Positions 3,047-33,677 of a stretch of DNA of 64,000 nt are shown here, piece by piece. The position numbers and the translations under genes are program-made. This stretch comes from Vicinamibacterales bacterium (GTDB lineage Bacteria > Acidobacteriota > Vicinamibacteria > Vicinamibacterales > UBA8438), in the NCBI GenBank assembly GCA_963663815.1, contig OY760734.1; one strand, given 5' to 3'. The notes under the pieces are model-generated. The model made no database searches. It saw only the letters and a list, made by a program, of their open reading frames with translations, and was not told the DNA's origin. Positions within the stretch are counted from its first letter, which is position 1, and each line of letters starts with the position of its first letter.

Positions 3047-5005
3047 ATGAAACCGTTTGTCGTCAACTCGCACCGCCGGCTCGTCTTCCCGTCCAACTTC
3101 TTTCCCGAACCGGACTTCTCGTCGATCGACACCGTCGACGACCTCGAGGCCATCGTGCGGCGCGACTTCGAGGTCAAGGCGCCGACCGGCTCGGAGATCG
3201 CGGCGCGGGCGGAATCGGGCGGGTACGCCAACCGTTACGAGCTGCTGCGCGATCTGGGGCTGCACCTGTTCTGGATGAACCGCTACGTCATCACGATGTA
3301 CGAGAAGCGGCCGACCCGGTGGCGCGACGTGCCGAGGCGCCGCGAGGATCTCTTCATCCCGGCCCTGACGCCCTGGGAGGACGGCGAACGCAAGGTCGCG
3401 GCCGTCGAGGCCTGCTACCGCCAGCTGCCCGCGGCGTGGTCGCCCGAGGTCGAGCACGAGCTGTACCGCATGCTGTTCGACGTGTTCCGCCACAAGCGGC
3501 ACCACGCGACCGACCTGCCGGCAATCAAGCCGACGGTCACCGAGGCCGTCGCCACCGGCTCCCAGCTGGTGTACCGGCTCGGATTGTTCGAGCCGGACTA
3601 TCCCCGGTTCAGCCTGGGAGACATCCTCGACTGCCACGAAAGCGTGCCGGAGCTCGAGGCCCTGCGGCGCTGGACGATGACCCTGCACAACCAGTATCCG
3701 TGGGACCGCTCGGACACCCGGCTGACCCCGGTGGGGGCCCTGAAGGGCGACGACGTCGTGATCGTCTACCAGCCCCGCACCACGGACGTGATGGACTTCA
3801 TCCGGCGCGTGAAGAACGGCGCGCCGCGCCGGCCGCGCGTTCCCCCGGCCCTGCCGCCGCGGCACCCGGTCACCCCCCTCGCACCCGTGCAGGTGCGGTC
3901 CCAGTTCGCGGTGCAGCCCCGCATCGAGGCCCTCGCCGTGCGGCGCGGCGAGCTCCTCTGCACCAACGACGACATCATCCGCAACTCGGCGTCCAACTGG
4001 TCGCCGATGAGCGCGGCGCAGATTGCCGCCAAGACCGGCATCGAGAGCCGCTGCTACACCGAGGGCGGCCTCGAGCACCTCGCCCTCGACGCGGCGCTGA
4101 GCGCGCTGGAGCGGGCCGGCCGGTCGCCCGAGGAGATGGGCGCGGTCCTCTTCTGCACCTGCACCAACACCCGGCTGCTGCCCTCGGCCGCCACCTGGCT
4201 GTCCGGACAGCTCGGCATGCTCCAGACCCACACCTCGGTCGACCTCGTCGCGGCGTGCGCCGGCTTTCCCTACGGCCTGGTGGACGCGGCCCGCATCCTG
4301 CAGGAGGTCCGGCGTCCGATCCTGCTGGTCTGCGCCGAGAAGTTCTCCGACAAGGTGGGCAGCGTGCGCACGTCGCGCATGATCTTCGGCGACGGCGCCG
4401 CCGCCCTCGTCGTGGCCCCGGCTGCGGACGGCGCCCCCGGCGACATCGACGTGCTGCAGACCTACGCCAGCGGCCCCGAGAGCCAGGTGAACTCGATCAT
4501 CTGGCCCAACGTCGAGTTCGGCTGCGACATCACCGTCTACGGGCCCGAGGTCAAGGCGCTCGTCAAGCGCTATCTGGAGCAGATGATCGGGGAGCTGCAG
4601 GCCCTGCCCCATCCCGACGGCAAGCCGGGGACCCTCATCGACGCGGTCGACCTGATCATCCCGCACCAGGCCAACAAGCGCATGGTGATCGATCTGGCCG
4701 AGCAGGCGGGCATCGGCCGCGACCGGATGTACTTCAACATCGCCCGGGTCGGCAACACCTCGGCCGCGAGCATTCCGCTGGCGATTCACGACGCGGTCCG
4801 CGAGGGCGTGCTCTCGACGCCGACCCGCGTGTTCACGCCCGGCTTCGGCGCCGGCGCCGTCGCCGGCTACGCGGTCCTGCGCGTCGACCCGGCCGTCGTC
4901 GCGCCGGAGCGGACGGGGCCGCCGGCGGCGGTTGACGCCGGCCCGCTGCCGGCACCTCCCCACACGTCGTCATCGGCCGACGTGGAGGCGGCCTTCGGGA
5001 GCTGA
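3047..5005 (+). CDS. KAS III (FabH/NphT7-like 3-oxoacyl synthase III) with a novel ~300-aa N-terminal domain
   Basis: The C-terminal ~320 aa carry the KAS III triad motifs: DLVAACAGFPYGL (Cys), IIPHQANKRM (His), RVGNTSAASIPLA (Asn). The N-terminal ~300 aa (MKPFVVNSHRRLVFPSNFFPEPDF...) are not recognisable. GGAGA lies 9 nt upstream of the ATG. Confidence 0.85.
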   Translation: MKPFVVNSHRRLVFPSNFFPEPDFSSIDTVDDLEAIVRRDFEVKAPTGSEIAARAESGGYANRYELLRDLGLHLFWMNRYVITMYEKRPTRWRDVPRRREDLFIPALTPWEDGERKVAAVEACYRQLPAAWSPEVEHELYRMLFDVFRHKRHHATDLPAIKPTVTEAVATGSQLVYRLGLFEPDYPRFSLGDILDCHESVPELEALRRWTMTLHNQYPWDRSDTRLTPVGALKGDDVVIVYQPRTTDVMDFIRRVKNGAPRRPRVPPALPPRHPVTPLAPVQVRSQFAVQPRIEALAVRRGELLCTNDDIIRNSASNWSPMSAAQIAAKTGIESRCYTEGGLEHLALDAALSALERAGRSPEEMGAVLFCTCTNTRLLPSAATWLSGQLGMLQTHTSVDLVAACAGFPYGLVDAARILQEVRRPILLVCAEKFSDKVGSVRTSRMIFGDGAAALVVAPAADGAPGDIDVLQTYASGPESQVNSIIWPNVEFGCDITVYGPEVKALVKRYLEQMIGELQALPHPDGKPGTLIDAVDLIIPHQANKRMVIDLAEQAGIGRDRMYFNIARVGNTSAASIPLAIHDAVREGVLSTPTRVFTPGFGAGAVAGYAVLRVDPAVVAPERTGPPAAVDAGPLPAPPHTSSSADVEAAFGS

Positions 5006-5251: not shown

Positions 5252-5992
5252 ATGTTCACAGGGAAGGTCGCCGTCGTCACCGGGGGATGCCGCGGCATCG
5301 GCGCCGCCATCACGCAGTGCCTCGCCGAGGCCGGCGCCCACGTCGCGGCCGGCTACAACCGGGGGGCGGAGACCGCGGAGGCCCTCGCGGCCGGCCTGCG
5401 GGCCGAGGGCCGCTCGATCTCGCTGCACCAGGGCAACGTGGCCGAGCCCGACTCCTGCGCTCGGGTGATCCGGGAGGTGATCGACCAGCAGGGGCGCATC
5501 GACTTCCTGGTCAACAACGCAGGCATCAACGTCGACAAGACGGTGCGCAAGATGACCGTCGACGACTGGCACGCGGTCCTCCGGGTGAACCTCTCCGGCG
5601 CGTTCTACATGATCAAAGCGGTGCTCAACCACATGACCGAGCGCGGCAGCGGCCGCATCGTCAACATCAGCTCGGTCATCGGCCAGAGCGGCAACATCGG
5701 GCAGGCCAACTACGCGGCGTCGAAGTCAGGGCAGTTCGGGTTCACCAAGAGCCTCGCCCTCGAGGTGGCGCGCAAGGGCATCACCGTCAACTGCGTGGCC
5801 CCCGGGTTCATCGAGACCGAGATGGTCGCCTCGGTCCCCAAGCCGGTGATGGAGCAGATCGTCGACCGCATCCCGCTGGGCCGTCTCGGGCAGGCCTCGG
5901 AGGTCGCGCGCTGCGTGCGGTTCCTGCTCGAGGACGAGGCGGGGTACATCACCGGCGCGATCCTCACCGTCAACGGCGGTCTCGAGATGTAG
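5252..5992 (+). CDS. phaB: acetoacetyl-CoA reductase / 3-oxoacyl reductase (SDR family)
   Basis: Start at the internal ATG 5252, preceded by GGAGGA. Motifs: TGGCRGIGAAI, NNAGI, GRIVNISSVIGQSGNIGQANYAASK. Close resemblance to the remembered PhaB sequence (GRIVNISSVNGQKGQFGQTNY). Lies in a PHA gene context. A FabG assignment cannot be excluded. Confidence 0.8.
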   Translation: MFTGKVAVVTGGCRGIGAAITQCLAEAGAHVAAGYNRGAETAEALAAGLRAEGRSISLHQGNVAEPDSCARVIREVIDQQGRIDFLVNNAGINVDKTVRKMTVDDWHAVLRVNLSGAFYMIKAVLNHMTERGSGRIVNISSVIGQSGNIGQANYAASKSGQFGFTKSLALEVARKGITVNCVAPGFIETEMVASVPKPVMEQIVDRIPLGRLGQASEVARCVRFLLEDEAGYITGAILTVNGGLEM

Positions 5993-6009: not shown

Positions 6010-6372
6010 ATGTCCGCCAAGCGATCCGGTCCCGACGTCGGCCTCGGCGAGTTCATCCGCCGCCAGCGCGAGCTGGGACACCTCTCGGTCCGCCAGCTCG
6101 CGGACGTGTGCGGCATCTCGAACGCCTATCTCAGCCAGATCGAGCGCGGCCTGCGGAACCCCAGCAGCTTCGTCCTCAAGGCCCTCGCCGACGGGCTGGA
6201 GATGTCCGCCGAGACGCTGTACGCCCAGGCCGGAATCCTCGACCCGTCGGAGGGCGAGGCGAGCGACGTCGTCGAGGCCATCCGCCGCGACCCCTACCTG
6301 TCGGCCCGCCAGCGCGAGATGCTCGTCGAGATGTACGAGTCGTTCCGCAAGGTGAACGACGCCGCCCGGTGA
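6010..6372 (+). CDS. XRE-family helix-turn-helix transcriptional regulator
   Basis: The HTH segment LSVRQLADVCGISNAYLSQIERGLRNPS is typical of XRE/Cro-like regulators. In-frame ATG at 6010, just after the phaB stop. Confidence 0.8.
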   Translation: MSAKRSGPDVGLGEFIRRQRELGHLSVRQLADVCGISNAYLSQIERGLRNPSSFVLKALADGLEMSAETLYAQAGILDPSEGEASDVVEAIRRDPYLSARQREMLVEMYESFRKVNDAAR

Positions 6373-6555: not shown

Positions 6556-7095
6556 ATGATCAACTGGACCAAGCAGACCGACGACATGCTGCAGGCGTGG
6601 ACGGACACCCAGAAGAAGCTGTGGAGCAGCTGGGCCGAGGCGACCGAGCAGCAGGCCAGCCAGACCCAGCTCGCCGAGACCTGGCGGAAGGCCGTCGACA
6701 CCTGGGAGGAGGCGGTCAAGAACGGTCTCGACACGCAGAAGGCGGCCATCCGCAGCCTCGCCGACAGCGCGTCGGCCGTCCCCAGCATCCCCCAGGACCT
6801 GCTGGACTGGGCCGAGCAGACCCAGGCCCTGAGCACCCGCTGGACCGAGGCCCAGAGCGAGCTCTGGGAGAGCTACTTCGGCATGGTCCGCAAGGCGGTG
6901 CCGGTGAAGATGCTGGGCACCATCGACGACGAGAACCAGAAGCTGTTCGCGGCGTGGCAGGAGTCGGTCGAGAAAGTCAGCGCGGCCCAGTCGGCGTGGG
7001 CGCAGATGTGGACCGAGCGCGCGGCCAGCGCGGTGCCGAAGGGGGCTCCCCGCACCACCGCCAGGACGAGGCCCGCTGCGAAGTCCGCCGCGTAG
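6556..7095 (+). CDS. phasin-like / PHA granule-associated protein (Trp-rich helical)
   Basis: ATG at 6556, preceded by GAGGAG. Trp- and acid-rich helical sequence (WTDTQKKLWSSWAEATEQ, WRKAVDTWEEAV, LWESYF, AAWQESVEK) with a basic tail. Sits directly upstream of phaC. The assignment is by context and composition only. Confidence 0.5.
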   Translation: MINWTKQTDDMLQAWTDTQKKLWSSWAEATEQQASQTQLAETWRKAVDTWEEAVKNGLDTQKAAIRSLADSASAVPSIPQDLLDWAEQTQALSTRWTEAQSELWESYFGMVRKAVPVKMLGTIDDENQKLFAAWQESVEKVSAAQSAWAQMWTERAASAVPKGAPRTTARTRPAAKSAA

Positions 7096-7199: not shown

Positions 7200-8288
7200 A
7201 TGACCGGCATGTCGGTGCAGTCCACCGCCAGCGACGCGAACGCCTGGTCGGCCTGGCAGACCGAGTTCGAGCGCACCATCCAGCGCGTCCGCAACATCGG
7301 CGAGCTCGTGGCCGAGTCCAACGAGCCGGCGGTCGGCCAGAGCCCGCGGCGCGAGGTCTACCGCAAGCACAAGGCGCGCCTGTACCGCTACGAGGGCACG
7401 GCCCGCTACGACACGCCGGTGCTCTTCGTTCCGAACCTCGGCATCAGCCGCCCCACCGTCTTCGACCTCCTGCCCCAGGCCAGCTTCATCGGCTACATGG
7501 TGGAGCAGGGGTTTCCGTTCTACCTGCTCGACTGGGGGGTCTTCGGCCCCGAGGACGACCACCTGACCTTCGCCGACTGCGCCACCCGCATTCTGCCCCG
7601 GATGGGGCGGAAGCTGCTGGCCGACGCGGACGCCGAGGCCTGCTCGGTCGTGGGCTACTGCATGGGGTCGCCGCTCGCGGTCAGCTTTCTCGGCAGCCAC
7701 CCCGAGTTCCCGGTCAAGAACCTCGTCAACCTCGCCGGCCCCATCGACTTCGAGGACGCGGGGCTCTTCGGCTGCTGGCTCGACCCCCGGTACTTCGACG
7801 TCGACAAGCTGGTCGACACCCTGGGGCAGATGCCGGCCGAGATGGTGCAGCTCGGCTTCAAGCTGCTCCGCCCCACCATGGACATGAGCACCGGCCTGAA
7901 CCTGTGGTGGAACGCCTGGAACGACCGCTATCTCGAAGGCTACAAGGCGCTCCAGAAGTGGGCCTCCGAGTACGTGCCGTTTCCCGGCGAGTTCTTCCGG
8001 CAGTGGGTCACCGACTTCTACCAGGAGAATCGACTGGCCCGGGGCACCCTTCAGCTCAACGGCCGGGCGGTCGACGTGGAGAGCATCACCTGTCCCCTCC
8101 TCGTGGTCGGGGCCCGGGACGACAACATCGCCCCGCCGGCGGGCGTCAGGGCGCTCGTCGACCTCGTCGGGAGCCGAGACAAGGACTACATGGAGCTGCC
8201 CGGCGGCCACATCTCGCTGATCGCCGGCCGGAGCGCATCGCGCGACTGCTGGCCGCACGTGGCGAGCTGGCTCGCGGCGCGATCGTAG
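7200..8288 (+). CDS. phaC: poly(R)-hydroxyalkanoate synthase, class III, PhaC subunit
   Basis: ~360 aa with lipase box GYCMGS. FRQWVTDFYQEN, ITCPLLVV and PGGHISLIAG match the remembered Allochromatium class III PhaC (FRQFIKDFYQNN, ITCPVL, PGGHIG). The start may be ATG 7209, which has better spacing from AAGGAG. Confidence 0.9.
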   Translation: MTGMSVQSTASDANAWSAWQTEFERTIQRVRNIGELVAESNEPAVGQSPRREVYRKHKARLYRYEGTARYDTPVLFVPNLGISRPTVFDLLPQASFIGYMVEQGFPFYLLDWGVFGPEDDHLTFADCATRILPRMGRKLLADADAEACSVVGYCMGSPLAVSFLGSHPEFPVKNLVNLAGPIDFEDAGLFGCWLDPRYFDVDKLVDTLGQMPAEMVQLGFKLLRPTMDMSTGLNLWWNAWNDRYLEGYKALQKWASEYVPFPGEFFRQWVTDFYQENRLARGTLQLNGRAVDVESITCPLLVVGARDDNIAPPAGVRALVDLVGSRDKDYMELPGGHISLIAGRSASRDCWPHVASWLAARS

Positions 8289-8382: not shown

Positions 8383-9342
8383 ATGGCAGACCCCACTTCG
8401 GACCGCGACGACCTGTTCGCGCAGTGGCGGAAGCAGGTGGAGGCGGGCACCGACGCGTGGATCAAGACGGTCCGGCAGATGGCCAGCCAGGGCCAGGTCC
8501 CTCCCCCGCCCGACCCGGCGCAGTTCTGGCGTCAGTTCTCGAACGCGGGTCCGTTCAACGCGTCCCCGTTCACGGGGGCGGGGCCCATCGATCCCGAGGT
8601 GCTGGCCCAGTGGAAGCGATTCCTCGACGACTGGATCGCCGCGTGGAGCCGGGCCCTCGAGCAGGCGATGGGAACCGAGGCGTTCGCGGAGGCCCTCGGC
8701 AAGACCCTCGACCAGTTCCTGACCGTCCAGGGCAAGGCCCGGCAGGCGGTGGAGCGCTCCGGCAAGGCCGCGATCGACGCCGTCGGCCTGCCCTCCCGCG
8801 AGCAGGTGGTCGGCCTGTCGCGGCAGATGATGGAGCTCGATGATCGGCTCGAGGCGATCGAGGACAGGCTCGAGGCGGACAAGCCCGAGGACAAGGCCGA
8901 GGCGGACAAGCTCGAGGCGATCGAGAACAGGCTCGGGGAGCTGGAGGCCAAGCTCGCGAGGCTCGACGGGCTCAAGAACAAGCTCGGGGGGCTCGACGAC
9001 AAGCTCGGGAGGCTCGAGGGGCTCGATGGCAAGCTCGGGGGGCTCGGCGACAGGCTCGAGGCGCTCGGCGACAAGCTCGAGGGGCTTGATGACAAGCTCG
9101 ACGCCCTCGGGGACCGCCCCCCGGACGCGGCGCCGGACGCGGGCGACCGGCCCCAGCCGCGCCGGGCGACCGGACGGAAGACCGCGGGCGGGAAGACCGG
9201 CGCCGGCGCCGTGAAAGCCGACGCCGGTGCGGCGAGGCCGGGCGGCAGCACCGCGAAGGCCCGCGGCAGCACCGCAAAAACCGGCGGCAGCGCCGCGAAG
9301 ACCGGACGCGGCGGCGCGCGAACGCCGAAGCGCCGAGCGTGA
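8383..9342 (+). CDS. phaE: PHA synthase subunit PhaE-like, with C-terminal repeat extension
   Basis: The core MGTEAFAEALGKTLD...GLPSREQVVGLSRQMMELDDRLEAIEDRLE parallels the remembered haloarchaeal/class III PhaE (MGTSAFAAANG...GFPTRNDMDEVGERLIELERR). It is followed by heptad LxxLxDK repeats and a Lys/Ala/Gly-rich tail. Confidence 0.7.
   Translation: MADPTSDRDDLFAQWRKQVEAGTDAWIKTVRQMASQGQVPPPPDPAQFWRQFSNAGPFNASPFTGAGPIDPEVLAQWKRFLDDWIAAWSRALEQAMGTEAFAEALGKTLDQFLTVQGKARQAVERSGKAAIDAVGLPSREQVVGLSRQMMELDDRLEAIEDRLEADKPEDKAEADKLEAIENRLGELEAKLARLDGLKNKLGGLDDKLGRLEGLDGKLGGLGDRLEALGDKLEGLDDKLDALGDRPPDAAPDAGDRPQPRRATGRKTAGGKTGAGAVKADAGAARPGGSTAKARGSTAKTGGSAAKTGRGGARTPKRRA
8848..9115. repeat. in-frame 21-bp (heptad) tandem repeats inside phaE
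   Basis: DNA units of the form GGGCTCGACGACAAGCTCGGG recur about 12 times. They encode LEAIEDR LEADKPE ... LGGLDDK LGRLEGLDGK LGGLGDR LEALGDK LEGLDDK LDALGDR. Confidence 0.7.
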
Positions 9343-9472: not shown

Positions 9473-10078
9473 ATGGGACGGATGCGAGGACGCCCCCTGC
9501 AGGACCTGACCGTCGGCGACACGGCGGAGCTGGCCCGCGTCGCCACCGCCGGAGACGTGGCGGAGTTCATCGACTCCATCGGCGACCACAACCCCATTCA
9601 CCAGGACTACGAGTACGCCGCCTCGACCCGGTTCGAGAAGCCGATCGTGCCCGGCATGTGGACGGCCGCCCTGATCTCCGCCGTGCTGGGCACGAAGCTC
9701 CCGGGCCCCGGCTGCATCTACGTCGGCCAGGAGATCGCGTTCACCCGGCCCGTCTACTTCGGCGATCGCATCACCGCGCGGGTCGAGGTGGTGGAGCGGC
9801 TGCCCGAGCGCAACCGGGTGCGGCTGAAGACCGTGTGCGTCAACCAAGAAGGCCGGGAGGTGCTGGTCGGCGAGGCCCTGCTGTCGCCCCCGAGGCAGGC
9901 CGTCGCGTACACGCGGCGGGAGACCGGCCCGGCCCGGGTCGCTCACTGGGCCCTGCAGCCGACCCTCTGGGCCGCCCACACGACCAGCGCGTGGGCGCGG
10001 CTGGGCACTGCGTGGGTCTCGGCGTGGCACGGGGCGCCGCATCGGCCCGGCGGCAACGGCGGCGCCGCCCGATCCTGA
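9473..10078 (+). CDS. phaJ: MaoC-like (R)-specific enoyl-CoA hydratase
   Basis: Hot-dog hydratase motif FIDSIGDHNPIHQD and GDRITARVEVVE. Start at ATG 9473 (or 9482) within the longer track ORF. Lies immediately downstream of phaE. Confidence 0.75.
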   Translation: MGRMRGRPLQDLTVGDTAELARVATAGDVAEFIDSIGDHNPIHQDYEYAASTRFEKPIVPGMWTAALISAVLGTKLPGPGCIYVGQEIAFTRPVYFGDRITARVEVVERLPERNRVRLKTVCVNQEGREVLVGEALLSPPRQAVAYTRRETGPARVAHWALQPTLWAAHTTSAWARLGTAWVSAWHGAPHRPGGNGGAARS

Positions 10079-14119: not shown

Positions 14120-15334
14120 GTGGCGCCGTCCAGCTCCCCGGACACGCCCCCGCCCGCGCGGGACGACCTGGCCCTCGTCCTCGTCGGCGGGGGCGCCCGG
14201 GCCGCCTACCAGGTCGGCTTCCTCGGAGAGCTGATCCGGCGCCACCCCACGGCGCGGTTCCCCATCCTCGTGGGGACGTCGGCCGGCGCCATCAACGCCA
14301 CCTATCTGGCCGCCCGGGAGGGCTCGCTGGCCGAGGCCGTCCGCGACCTCGTCGAGCACTGGCGGGGCCAGCGGGTCGACCGGGTATTCCGGGTCGACAG
14401 CGGCTCGCTCGCCGGCCTCGTCGCGCGCTGGGGCATCCGGCTCCTGTCGGGCGGCGCCACGTTCGCGCCCCGGGTGCGGGGGCTGCTCGACACCGCGCCC
14501 CTCCGCGCCTCGCTGTACGAGCGGCTGAAGCCGAACCACAAGGGTGAGATCGCCGGCATCGCCCGCAACCTCGAGGCGGGCCGCCTGCGGTCGCTCGCCA
14601 TCTCCACGAGCAGCTACAGCACCGGGCAGTCGGTGATCTGGGTGCAGGGCGGAGACATCGAGGACTGGAACCGCCCCTACCGGCGCGGCCGCCGCGTCGC
14701 CATCACCGTCGAGCACGTCATGGCCTCGGCCGCCCTGCCGCTGTTCTTCCCCGCCGTGCGCCTCGACGACGGCTGGCACGGCGACGGCGGCATCCGGATG
14801 ATGGCCCCCTGCTCGGCCCCCATCCACCTCGGCGCCCGGCGCATCCTCGCCGTCTCGAACCGCCACCGCGGCATCACGCAGGAGGCCAGCCAACCCGTCA
14901 TCCACGACTACCCGCCGCCCGCCCAAATCGGCGGCCAGCTCCTCAACGCGATGTTCCTCGACGACCTCGACCACGACGGGCTGACCCTGCAGCGCCTGAA
15001 CTCGCTGATCCGGGACCTGCCTCCCCACCGCCGGCAGGGCCTGCATCCCGTCGAGCTCGTCGTCATCCGCCCGTCGGAGGACCTCGGCCGGCTGTCCCTC
15101 GAGTTCGAGCCGCAACTTCCGCGGGCGTTCCGCTACATGACCCGGGGCCTCGGGTCGCGCGAGACGACGAGCCCCGACCTGCTGAGCCTGCTGATGTTCC
15201 AGCCCGACTACATCCACCGGTTGCTGGAGATCGGCGCGGCGGACGCGGTGGCCGCGGGTCCGCGACTGGCGGCCCTGCTGACCCCGGAGTCCACGGTTAC
15301 CGAACCGACGACCGGAACGGGGAGGCGCGGCTAG
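14120..15334 (+). CDS. patatin-like phospholipase
   Basis: GGGARAAYQVG (oxyanion loop), GTSAGAINA (GxSxG) and HGDGGI (Asp of the catalytic dyad). GTG start 7 nt after the upstream stop. Confidence 0.85.
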   Translation: MAPSSSPDTPPPARDDLALVLVGGGARAAYQVGFLGELIRRHPTARFPILVGTSAGAINATYLAAREGSLAEAVRDLVEHWRGQRVDRVFRVDSGSLAGLVARWGIRLLSGGATFAPRVRGLLDTAPLRASLYERLKPNHKGEIAGIARNLEAGRLRSLAISTSSYSTGQSVIWVQGGDIEDWNRPYRRGRRVAITVEHVMASAALPLFFPAVRLDDGWHGDGGIRMMAPCSAPIHLGARRILAVSNRHRGITQEASQPVIHDYPPPAQIGGQLLNAMFLDDLDHDGLTLQRLNSLIRDLPPHRRQGLHPVELVVIRPSEDLGRLSLEFEPQLPRAFRYMTRGLGSRETTSPDLLSLLMFQPDYIHRLLEIGAADAVAAGPRLAALLTPESTVTEPTTGTGRRG

Positions 15335-23457: not shown

Positions 23458-24675
23458 TCAGGACACCCGCTCCAGCACGGCCGCGAGGCCCTGGCCGACG
23501 CCGATGCACAGGGTCACGAGGGCGTAGCGCCCCTGGCACCGCTGGAGCTGCCGGGTCGCGGTCAGCGTCAGCCGAGCGCCGGACGCGCCCAGGGGATGGC
23601 CGACCGCGATCGCGCCGCCGTTCGGGTTGACCCGGCTGTCGTCCTGGTCGATCTCGAGCAGCTTCAGGCACCCCAGCACCTGGGTGGCGAACGCCTCGTT
23701 GATCTCGATGACGTCGATGTCGGCCAGCGTCAGCCCCGCCCGCGCCAGCGCCTTCCGGCTCGCGGGCACCGGCCCCAGGCCCATGACCCGCGGCTCGACC
23801 CCCGCCGCCGCGGCCGAGACCACCCGCGCGAGGGGCGCCGCCCCCGCCTTCTCTCCGGCGGCGCGGCTGCCGACGACGAGCGCCGCCGCGCCGTCGTTGA
23901 TGCCCGAGGCGTTGCCGGCGGTCACCACCCCGCCCTCGAACAGCGGCCGTAGCGTCGCCAGCTTCTCGAGCGAGGTCCCCGGCCGGGGATGCTCGTCGTC
24001 GGCCACCTCCGTCTGCTCTCCCCGCTTCCGCCCCGGCACCGTCACCGGGTCGAGCTCGTCCTTGTAGAAGCAGGCGGACTTGGCGCGGGCGAACCGCTGC
24101 TGCGACGCGACGGCGTACCGGTCGCTGTCGGCGCGGGTGATGGCCAGGTCGGCGGCGACGTTGTCGGCGGTCACCGGCATCGCGTGGTCGCCGTACTGGG
24201 CGGTGGTCCTGGGGTTGGAGAACCGCGACCCCAGGGTGCTGTCGTGCACCGTGAGCTGGCGCCCGAAGGCCCGCTCCGACTTGGCCATCACGAAGGGGGC
24301 CCGGCTCATGCTCTCGACCCCACCCGCGATGAACAGGTCGCCCTGCCCGCAGGCGACCGCCCGCGAGGCGTCCACGACCGCGGCGAGCCCGCTCGCGCAC
24401 AGCCGGTTGACGGTCATGCCGGCCACCTCCACCGGCAGTCCGGCGAGCAGCCCGGCCCGCCGCGCGACGTTGCGGCAGTCCTCGCCGGCCTGGTTGGTGC
24501 AGCCGGCGATGACGTCCTCGACGTCCTCGGCCCTGAACGGGCTGCGCGCCATCAGGGTGGCGATGGGGCCGGCCAGCAGGTCGTCCGGGCGCACGGGGGC
24601 GAGGGCCCCGGCGTGGCGGCCGAAGGGGGTGCGTACTCCGTCGTAGATGAAGGCGTCTGTCATGGTCGAGGGCAC
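23458..24675 (-). CDS. acetyl-CoA C-acyl/acetyltransferase (thiolase; PcaF/PaaJ-like N-terminus)
   Basis: VNRLCASGL (acyl-Cys), NGGAIAVGHPLGASGARL and LCIGVGQG (C-terminal Cys). The start may be ATG 24663 (MTDAFIYDG). Confidence 0.9.
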   Translation of the reverse strand: MPSTMTDAFIYDGVRTPFGRHAGALAPVRPDDLLAGPIATLMARSPFRAEDVEDVIAGCTNQAGEDCRNVARRAGLLAGLPVEVAGMTVNRLCASGLAAVVDASRAVACGQGDLFIAGGVESMSRAPFVMAKSERAFGRQLTVHDSTLGSRFSNPRTTAQYGDHAMPVTADNVAADLAITRADSDRYAVASQQRFARAKSACFYKDELDPVTVPGRKRGEQTEVADDEHPRPGTSLEKLATLRPLFEGGVVTAGNASGINDGAAALVVGSRAAGEKAGAAPLARVVSAAAAGVEPRVMGLGPVPASRKALARAGLTLADIDVIEINEAFATQVLGCLKLLEIDQDDSRVNPNGGAIAVGHPLGASGARLTLTATRQLQRCQGRYALVTLCIGVGQGLAAVLERVS

Positions 24676-29985: not shown

Positions 29986-32214
<2,229 letters not shown>

Positions 32215-32354
32215 GGTGTCCCCGATTGCGGCGTCGAACGATAGTGGACCGGCCCCGGACGGGCACGGATCCGACGATCGTACCCGATCCGTGACGCCGG
32301 GACACGCGCGCGACGCCGGAACACGGGAGCCCGCGCCGGTGACGATATAATCCC

Positions 32355-33677
32355 GTGCCTGCGATGCCTCCACTGCACGGGCTGCGTGTAATCGACCTGA
32401 CCCGGGTGCTTGCCGGGCCCTACTGCGCCATGATGCTGGGCGACATGGGGGCCGACGTCATCAAGGTCGAGGAGCCCTCGCACGGCGACGACACCCGGGC
32501 CTGGGCGCCGTTCGCCGACGGGGTCAGCACCTTCTTCCTGGGGCTGAACCGCAGCAAGCGGAGCGTCGGCCTCGACCTCAAGACCCCGGCCGGGGCCGGC
32601 GCGCTGCGGGCCCTGCTCGCCGACGCCGACGTCATGATCGAGAACTTCAGGCCGGGCAGCCTGAAGAAGCTGGGGTTCGACTACGAGTCGATCCGCCGCG
32701 ACCATCCCCAGCTCGTCTACTGCTCCATCACCGGCTACGGCCAGCAGGGCCCCCGGCGCAACCTGCCCGGCTACGACGCGGTCATCCAGGGCGAGTCGGG
32801 GGTCATGCACGTCACCGGCGCCCGGGACGGCCCCCCGACGCGGGTCGGGGTCGCGATGACCGACTTCCTGGCCGGGCTGTACGCGATGAACGGCATCCTC
32901 CTCGCGCTGCGCGACCGCGACGAGACGGGGCTGGGGCAGCACGTCGACATCGCCCTCCTCGACTCGATGACCTCGACGCTGGCCCTCCCCGCCAACGTCC
33001 TCTTCGCGACCGGCGAAGAGCTGGGCCGCGAGGGCAACGACCATCATTCGCTCACGCCGTACGAAGCGCTGGAGGTCAGCGACGGGCTGGTCATGATCGC
33101 GGTCGGCAACCAGCGGCTCTGGCGCCAGTTCTGCCGGGCCATCGACGAGCCGGAGCTGGAGACGGATCCGCGCTTCGTGACCAACACCGAGCGCATGCGG
33201 CACCGGGGCGAGCTCAAGGCCCGGCTCGGGTCGCTGCTCGGCGGCTGGACCCGCGACGCCGTCATCGAGCGCCTGCGGGCGCACGCGGTCCCCTGCGGGC
33301 AGGTGCGCTCGCTGGCCGAGGCCCTCGCCGACCCGCAGCTCGCGGCGCGCGACATGGTGGTGGAGCTCGACCACCCGCGGCTCGGGACGATTCAGGCACT
33401 GGGAAACCCCATCAAGCTGTCGCGCACGCCGGCCGTCGTCGACCGGCCTCCGCCGGCCCTCGGCGAGCACAACGAGGAAGTTCTGGCCGACCTGCCGGCC
33501 GCCGACCTGCCGGCCACCTCGAGGACCGACCGCGACTCGGGTTCCCCCGCCGCGGCCAGTGACCCGCCGGCCACGGACCCGCCGGCCACGGACCCACTGG
33601 CGGCGGAGGGGCCGGCGACGGAAGCACCGGAGGAAACGGCGCGGGCGGCCGCGGTGACCGCCGACGTCGGGGAGTGA
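32355..33677 (+). CDS. family III CoA-transferase (CaiB/BaiF-type) with a low-complexity C-terminal tail
   Basis: [35 protein letters not shown] and the DDTRAW motif. The tail [25 protein letters not shown] is encoded by a short 15-bp tandem duplication. Confidence 0.85.

Follow-up and report, generated by a model that had tools for sequence, protein, structure and literature searches.

A condensing enzyme of the KAS III type that carries an orphan domain, encoded in a polyhydroxyalkanoate gene cluster of a Vicinamibacterales bacterium, and the linkage of its family to polyhydroxyalkanoate genes in several phyla

Textbook synthesis of polyhydroxybutyrate (PHB) begins with a reversible, thermodynamically unfavourable thiolase reaction, and metabolic engineers swap the thiolase for NphT7 to draw carbon into the polymer. 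NphT7 (Streptomyces sp. CL190, EC 2.3.1.194) is a 329-aa enzyme with the fold of β-ketoacyl-acyl carrier protein (ACP) synthase III (KAS III) and a Cys-His-Asn triad, is found in mevalonate clusters mainly of Streptomyces, and forms acetoacetyl-CoA and CO2 from acetyl-CoA and malonyl-CoA. It is without the Arg needed for binding of ACP, and its AGGSR motif has been proposed to bind the CoA of malonyl-CoA (PMC5432608). Here we describe a gene at positions 3047–5005 of a 64,000-nucleotide stretch of contig OY760734.1 (assembly GCA_963663815.1, a Vicinamibacterales bacterium of the Acidobacteriota), this whole stretch being referred to as the window and all coordinates being on its plus strand unless stated. 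The gene encodes a 652-aa protein with a KAS III domain in its C-terminal half and an orphan domain in its N-terminal half, and lies directly upstream of a phaB-like gene, the slot that belongs to PhaA or BktB in canonical phaCAB operons. The protein belongs to the KAS III condensing enzymes and carries an orphan domain in addition; it stands in a natural polyhydroxyalkanoate (PHA) pathway context of a sort known until now from synthetic biology alone.

The open reading frame (ORF) starts with ATG, has a GGAG 12 nt 5′ of the start codon, and has a GC content at third codon positions of 0.95, typical of real genes in this sequence of ~71% GC. The protein consists of an N-domain (residues 1–260; 3047–3826), a Pro/Arg-rich interdomain linker of variable sequence (residues 261–289; 3827–3913) with predicted local distance difference test scores (pLDDT) of 64–73, a KAS III domain of the FabH fold (residues 290–620; 3914–4906), and a C-terminal tail (residues 621–652; 4907–5002). 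The full-length AlphaFold model has a pLDDT of 87.8 and a predicted template modelling score (pTM) of 0.85; such values for a two-domain chain suggest a fixed domain arrangement rather than beads on a string, with the N-domain predicted to be a rigidly packed, integral part of the enzyme. In Foldseek searches with this model the C-terminal half alone matches known structures, namely FabH proteins (template modelling (TM) scores of 0.88–0.91 relative to the target; 28–32% identity). A first-pass annotation made from the sequence alone had placed a KAS III region and its three motifs in this half, and they lie as claimed (ACAGFPYG at residues 403–410, IPHQANKRM at 538–546 and GNTSAASIP at 569–577). 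It had begun the fold at residue ~310, whereas the start is at ~290, so that the extra part is a ~260-aa domain followed by a ~30-aa Pro/Arg-rich linker.

Both Pfam signatures of the condensing domain score above their gathering thresholds (PF08545, ACP_syn_III, residues 399–461, 43.9 bits; PF08541, ACP_syn_III_C, residues 531–612, 79.4 bits), and the matching PDB sequences are FabH proteins aligned over residues ~297–616 (best E 4e-36). Alignment to E. coli FabH (a reference identical to PDB 1HN9) and to NphT7 (identical to its UniRef entry) yields an intact triad of C404, H540 and N570, equivalent to FabH C112, H244 and N274. Among the 129 family members in which residue conservation was counted, the catalytic Cys (within ACAGFPYG; 4253–4276) is present in 127, the His (within IPHQANKRM; 4658–4684) in all 129, and the Asn (within GNTSAASIP; 4751–4777) in 124. 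The family also includes P0136 (622 aa, from a metagenome), whose catalytic Cys has been replaced by Ala (GGAAGFVYG) along with further active-site changes; it could be a regulatory paralogue or a pseudoenzyme.

E. coli FabH is the best structural match, and its CoA-contact positions W32 and the R36/R151 type are retained as W318, K329 and R441/R444. The equivalent of W32, which we take to be the residue that stacks on the CoA adenine, is followed in this family by a specific 7-residue insertion (WSPMSAAQ), suggesting that the CoA site has been remodelled. The FabH F87 equivalent is Ile or Leu, not Phe. In the region of the NphT7 AGGSR motif the family has a shorter stretch, carrying a motif of its own that is near-invariant (SIIWPN; 4493–4510), of which I484, W486 and N488 are kept in 125–126 of the 129 members.

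E. coli FabH and NphT7 share 37% identity with each other, and the KAS domain has 31% identity to the first and 29% to the second. On two curated NCBIfam FabH models the KAS domain falls well short of the cutoffs, with 172.6 bits on NF006829 (cutoff 249; E. coli FabH 476, NphT7 321) and 144.7 bits on TIGR00747 (cutoff 292.1; E. coli FabH 503, NphT7 289). On a hidden Markov model (HMM) made from 120 NphT7-clade proteins it scores 101 bits, where NphT7 itself reaches 636 and E. coli FabH 244. On these sequence comparisons the domain is a branch more diverged from FabH than NphT7 is, and lies outside the NphT7 clade. A firm clustering with ACP-dependent FabH, one outcome raised in the first-pass annotation, is therefore not seen, and neither is descent from an NphT7-type enzyme, against which the low identity, the score beneath that of FabH on the NphT7-clade HMM, and the missing AGGSR motif all speak. 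Any acetoacetyl-CoA synthase activity in this family would consequently be convergent. Likeness to FabH is also a poor guide to ACP use here, because NphT7, which is ACP-independent, is more FabH-like than this domain. Other readings were considered and set aside: matches to OleA, PqsD, BioZ and HMG-CoA synthase are far weaker than those to FabH, and ole, pqs and bio contexts are absent.

The basic ACP-docking patch of E. coli FabH, which we take to comprise K214, R249, K256 and K257, is not conserved in the family. K214 is replaced by Ala or Ser in 117 of the 129 members, K256 and K257 are variable, and the R249 equivalent (position 545) is Thr in 81 and Arg in 28, so that the docking Arg, as in NphT7, is not kept in most members. 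This Arg is also considered in PMC5432608. Searches by tblastn (E≤1) found no ACP-like gene in the window or in 80 family loci fetched for neighbourhood analysis, and none of the recurrent neighbour clusters in those loci is of a fab type such as fabD or fabF. The pattern at the docking positions is mixed, with Arg kept at position 545 in the window protein, and leans against ACP use.

The N-domain had been described in the first-pass annotation as unrecognised, and it remains unmatched after structural and profile searches. Residues 1–295 have no Pfam match even at E≤10, no NCBIfam match, and no match to PDB sequences either by phmmer or with a 24-sequence profile. An AlphaFold2 model of the N-domain, made with the same alignment, is confident and of mixed alpha/beta type (pLDDT 86.6, pTM 0.82), yet Foldseek found nothing closer in the PDB than a match with an E of 5.4 (TM≤0.12) and nothing in BFVD. 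Derivation as a degenerate repeat of the thiolase fold (as in the KAS domain) was rejected, since hhalign against the KAS profile gave a trivial 12-residue overlap alone. With the window protein as reference, the N-domain has a mean identity of 59% to cross-phylum homologues, compared with 69% for the KAS domain. Many of its Arg, Trp and Asp positions are invariant, and R39, L66, W76, R79, W92, D94, L127, R208, V238 and P243 are invariant even in members whose N-domains are 26–35% identical. Constraint of this strength is easier to reconcile with a part in ligand binding or catalytic support than with a loosely attached targeting module. An earlier suggestion that the extra domain targets the protein to granules gained no support, given conservation that approaches that of the catalytic domain and retention of the N-domain in lineages without pha neighbours. 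The N-domain might remodel the substrate entrance or CoA-binding face of the KAS domain, jointly with the WSPMSAAQ insertion, or might mediate assembly with partners. A ~260-aa domain with ~59% identity across phyla, a confident predicted structure and no Pfam or PDB match is a well-defined target for structural and functional work.

An exhaustive HMMER scan with the N-domain alone against 1.84 billion representative proteins matched 372 clusters, of which 150 were listed. Among the matches listed, all full-length ones are proteins of ~620–680 aa with an N-domain and a KAS domain, and the rest, for the most part, do not reach the length of the domain and resemble pieces of genes; in this listing the N-domain occurs solely as a fusion to this KAS domain. 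The architecture is unchanged in P0161, P0211 and P0259, which are full length and have N-domains with only 26–35% identity. An apparent stand-alone N-domain (P0130; 291 aa) was discarded because it ends at an in-frame stop beyond which the KAS domain goes on in the same frame.

The C-terminal tail begins with a variable, low-confidence linker (pLDDT <50 for residues 625–642) and ends in a conserved peptide, SSSADVEAAFGS (4967–5002), with the motif [ST]S.(D/E)(D/N)V..AFG. The peptide is seen in Acidobacteriota, Actinomycetota, Myxococcota, Gammaproteobacteria and Dormibacterota (loci L001–L080) and is missing from a Rokubacteria clade of 618-aa proteins that also is without pha or acetyl-CoA carboxylase (ACC) neighbours. 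To judge from its sequence, it looks like a docking motif.

The two-domain architecture is widespread. More than 100 of the 120 best homologues listed are 640–665 aa long, with coverage of 93–100% and identity of 61–94%; where the sources name them, they are labelled "3-oxoacyl-ACP synthase III". A scan with one genome per species found the architecture in at least 513 species across several phyla. The closest relatives are Vicinamibacterales proteins (87–95% identical), and many carriers are Actinomycetota, including the cultured Geodermatophilus obscurus DSM 43161, G. saharensis, G. sabuli and Pseudonocardia terrae. Further carriers belong to the Rokubacteria/Methylomirabilota, Myxococcales, Steroidobacteraceae and Dormibacterota.

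Gene neighbourhoods were compared in the 80 fetched loci, which were picked by similarity, include several from closely related metagenome-assembled genomes and many short contigs, and carry taxon labels as in the source records. Neighbouring genes were called and clustered, and recurrent clusters were annotated and then recounted by tblastn within 8 kb of the fusion gene; a PhaB-like short-chain dehydrogenase/reductase (SDR) was counted if at least 45% identical to the SDR of the window. ACC, phaB or phaC is found in 57 of the 80 loci. A PhaB-like SDR is present in 38 and adjacent in 23, and PhaC, of class I (~575 aa, with PhaC_N) or class III (~340–360 aa), is present in 31, making it the commonest partner other than the reductase and ACC. 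An XRE regulator occurs in 26 loci and PhaJ in 15; a thiolase is found in just three. In the 12 Vicinamibacterales loci phaB is adjacent in ten and phaC present in ten; the 50 actinobacterial loci include 27 with phaB and 20 with a class I phaC, and Myxococcota loci also have phaB or phaC. Linkage to pha genes in relatives, which the first-pass annotation had asked about, is accordingly kept well past close kin, in Acidobacteriota, Actinomycetota and Myxococcota. Next to some members there are also genes for enoyl-CoA hydratases, acyl-CoA ligases, acyl-CoA dehydrogenases and a dehydrogenase of the medium-chain dehydrogenase/reductase (MDR) type.

A second recurrent partner is a ~1840-aa single-chain ACC, containing biotin carboxylase (BC), biotin carboxyl carrier protein (BCCP), ACC_central and carboxyltransferase (CT) regions. 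It is encoded in 34 of the 80 loci (e.g. L013:2405–7957 and L026:2454–7967) and is immediately adjacent in 29; the 50 loci from Actinomycetota include 33 that encode it, 28 of them with the carboxylase adjacent, and one Dormibacterota genome also has it. This eukaryote-like ACC shares the BC-BCCP-central-CT architecture of SACE_4237 from Saccharopolyspora erythraea, a protein of ~200 kDa with measured acetyl- and propionyl-CoA carboxylase activity that is essential there (PMC6491548). The SACE_4237 paper, the only characterisation of this ACC type found, makes no mention of a KAS neighbour gene (PMC6491548). The carboxylase is a partner of the fusion protein, not a homologue, and is missing from the window described here, in which neither an ACC gene nor, in a scan of the remaining sequence, other carboxylase or fab genes were found. 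In Geodermatophilus obscurus the genes run phaB-acc-kas on a single strand, and the Pseudonocardia order is kas-acc-phaB; this shift in order while the trio stays together argues for functional coupling.

Two further members link the enzyme functionally to its reductase and synthase partners in a way that does not depend on the Vicinamibacterales arrangement. P0131 (881 aa; L081:10001–12646) is an in-frame triple fusion of the N-domain, the KAS domain and a PhaB-type SDR, found on three independent metagenome contigs, and its locus encodes a class III PhaC, PhaE-like and phasin-like proteins and a PhaR (PHB_acc_N) regulator. P0161 (43% identical overall) is encoded at the head of a kas-phaC-SDR string in which stop codons overlap start codons. 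Other gene calls were rejected. P0417 (907 aa, Acidobacteria), seemingly a KAS-PhaB fusion, is a frameshift read-through artefact; P0159 is a frameshifted call in which an ACC carboxyltransferase region runs into the KAS N-domain; and P0214 is a frameshifted call with unrelated upstream sequence.

The family is very probably linked to PHA metabolism, and the linkage is strong. As to the reaction, the intact triad together with the ACC linkage makes decarboxylative condensation likely, and circumstantial evidence points to malonyl-CoA rather than malonyl-ACP as the substrate. We favour, with a probability of roughly 0.55, a dedicated PHA-pathway enzyme that would make acetoacetyl-CoA from an acyl-CoA and malonyl-CoA, NphT7-like in its chemistry and independently evolved. 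Such an enzyme would fill the slot usual for the PhaA thiolase as a decarboxylating Claisen condensase of the KAS III type. Cys404 would be acylated by acetyl-CoA or another short acyl-CoA, malonyl-CoA would be decarboxylated with His540 and Asn570 driving the step, and the resulting carbanion would attack the acyl-enzyme to give acetoacetyl-CoA (or, more generally, a 3-ketoacyl-CoA). The adjoining PhaB-like reductase could then produce the (R)-3-hydroxyacyl-CoA, to be polymerised by PhaC and its PhaE/R-like partner. Malonyl-CoA would be supplied by ACC, in many Actinomycetota from the same gene string; with ACC co-encoded, two acetyl-CoA and ATP would be converted to acetoacetyl-CoA, and the loss of CO2 would make this entry irreversible. 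The product is presumably that of PhaA and BktB. However, the fusion protein belongs to another branch of the thiolase superfamily, with no Pfam match to Thiolase_N or Thiolase_C and without Cys-His-Cys chemistry, and its proposed reaction is decarboxylative, irreversible and dependent on malonyl-CoA. Engineered pathways in cyanobacteria, Pseudomonas putida and yeast in which NphT7, PhaB and PhaC together yield PHB have the same malonyl-CoA-driven logic and provide a proof of principle; they are synthetic combinations, whereas the arrangement here is natural and its enzyme unrelated to NphT7 at the clade level. NphT7 itself differs in having neither the orphan domain nor the tail, and the fusion family differs in its setting, in PHA and ACC clusters of several phyla.

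Several observations weigh against the favoured reading. The KAS domain is without the AGGSR motif and outside the NphT7 clade, the window protein and its close relatives keep an Arg (R545) at the R249 position, and the docking residues that have been lost are flanked by conserved Lys/Arg at 503 and 544, which leaves some probability for ACP use. The adjoining SDR (5252–5992) scores nearly alike as PhaB (TIGR01829, 295.9 bits, cutoff 302.1) and as FabG (TIGR01830, 290.5 bits, cutoff 297.75). In S. erythraea fatty-acid synthesis relies on this ACC type as its essential housekeeping carboxylase (PMC6491548), and the linkage could therefore be a matter of lipid metabolism and not of PHA. All eight Rokubacteria and all four Gammaproteobacteria loci are without pha or ACC neighbours, their neighbours being unrelated genes. 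Finally, the window contains a thiolase gene (23458–24675, minus strand; Thiolase_N and Thiolase_C), the sole one found in the 64 kb, 13.4 kb beyond the end of the cluster and on the other strand, as the first-pass annotation had noted. That annotation's proposal of a thiolase-independent entry through malonyl-CoA thus stands in part: a thiolase in only three of the 80 loci and an ACC adjacent in 28 of the 50 actinobacterial ones speak for it, and the thiolase 13 kb away in the window itself speaks against it.

R545, the near-equal FabG score of the SDR and the role of the ACC in S. erythraea, together with nearest sequence and structure matches that are all FabH, are what would be expected of an ACP-dependent FabH paralogue that condenses an acyl-CoA with malonyl-ACP at the start of a fatty-acid or specialised lipid pathway, in which case the SDR would be a FabG, the ACC would be housekeeping and the pha linkage would come about through shared pools. 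We consider such a paralogue improbable. The domain scores only 172.6 bits on a FabH model with a cutoff of 249, on which NphT7, an enzyme that uses no ACP, scores 321; the family as a whole does not keep the docking residues; and the 80 loci have no ACP gene and no recurrent fab-type neighbour, their recurring neighbours being instead genes for PhaC, PhaJ, PhaR and phasins. FabH further differs from the fusion protein in having neither the 290-aa N-terminal region nor the 7-residue insertion.

The enzyme could instead be a malonyl-CoA-dependent condensase that is not specific to PHA, or not to C4 products, elongating C3–C6 acyl-CoAs to 3-ketoacyl-CoAs for copolymers or feeding acetoacetyl-CoA, 3-hydroxybutyryl-CoA or crotonyl-CoA to other sinks, for instance butyryl starter units or the ethylmalonyl-CoA pathway. 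The Ile/Leu at the F87 position, the propionyl-CoA carboxylase activity of the ACC type, the hydratase, ligase, acyl-CoA dehydrogenase and MDR-type dehydrogenase genes beside some members, and the Rokubacteria and Gammaproteobacteria members without pha neighbours would all accommodate this broader role. It is nevertheless an unlikely one, since PhaC is the commonest partner after the reductase and ACC and since the triple fusion P0131 sits within a full PHA locus. Lastly, KAS III-like acyltransferases exist, and the domain might be an acyltransferase or transacylase (carrying acyl groups such as 3-hydroxyacyl or acetoacetyl from ACP to CoA or back) or a non-catalytic PHA scaffold; the N-domain and the docking-like C-terminal peptide suggest protein-protein interactions, and one member has lost the catalytic Cys. 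This is very improbable when a decarboxylation-competent Cys-His-Asn triad is kept in 124–129 of 129 members, and the linkage to an ACC that produces malonyl-CoA is hard to explain without decarboxylative condensation.

The dedicated PHA-pathway enzyme can be extended to a wider proposal, which we offer tentatively and at somewhat less than even odds. Many soil Actinomycetota and Acidobacteriota would start PHA synthesis without a thiolase, by an ATP-driven, irreversible route from ACC through the KAS III enzyme to PhaB; the use of malonyl-CoA would have evolved independently of NphT7; and the N-domain, with its previously unseen fold, and the C-terminal docking peptide would bind CoA substrates or channel malonyl-CoA from the carboxylase. 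If the family naturally does the work for which engineers bring in NphT7, it would be a second, independent invention of an acetoacetyl-CoA synthase, far more widespread than NphT7. The pha clusters "lacking phaA" in abundant soil phyla would then be complete, which would change how PHA potential is read from genomes, and new enzymes and a natural ACC-KAS-reductase module would become available for bioplastic and butanol-type pathways. Full-text literature searches, with most subscription journals outside their coverage, returned the engineered NphT7-to-PHB work and the ACC paper alone, and the family, the N-domain and the ACC-KAS-PhaB module were not described in what they covered.

In the window the fusion gene heads a group of genes on one strand, arranged as the first-pass annotation had stated: it lies directly upstream of the PhaB-like gene and is co-oriented with the phasin-like gene, phaC, and the PhaE-like and PhaJ-like genes. 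The SDR is of the NADPH type (acetoacetyl-CoA reductase or FabG-like). Following it is a gene for a 120-aa XRE-family helix-turn-helix regulator (6010–6372; Pfam HTH_3), a candidate for a PHA regulator that is neither PhaR nor PhaQ. In Acidobacteriota and Actinomycetota loci this regulator, which here stands between phaB and the phasin-like gene, is often found beside an unannotated protein of ~100 aa. The phasin-like protein (6556–7095) resembles the N-terminus of PhaE (PF09712 profile positions 2–55, 25.9 bits). Next are the catalytic subunit of a PHA synthase of class III/IV type (PhaC; 362 aa; 7200–8288; TIGR01836, 2e-78), a coiled-coil PhaE/PhaR-like synthase partner (8383–9342) and a MaoC-type, PhaJ-like (R)-specific enoyl-CoA hydratase (9473–10078; PF01575, 6e-18). 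PhaE seems to be split around phaC, with the upstream gene matching PhaE positions 2–55 and the downstream gene positions 230–304. The downstream coiled-coil gene matches the PhaR of Bacillus megaterium better (TIGR02132, PhaR_Bmeg, 5.5e-8) than the C-terminal region of PhaE (0.005), and the PHA synthase of the window may stand somewhere between classes III and IV.

There is no plus-strand terminator-like site inside the cluster, and Rfam, promoter and terminator scans of 1–12 kb gave nothing informative. A small ORF encoding 68 aa (2729–2935; MTAARSDFLVEE...WIEEILADLDDRR) ends 111 nt upstream of the fusion gene. Its product has no known family. Seven Vicinamibacterales loci (L001–L006 and L008) encode a conserved version of the protein in which neither the start nor the C-terminus differs, and it could be an extra component of the cluster. 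On the other side, a gene for a patatin-like phospholipase (14120–15334) lies ~4 kb 3′ of the pha cluster. Further along, the interval 29986–33677 contains genes for a family III CoA-transferase and, on the minus strand, a monomeric isocitrate dehydrogenase; they serve ordinary central and acyl-CoA metabolism and are not linked to the fusion gene.

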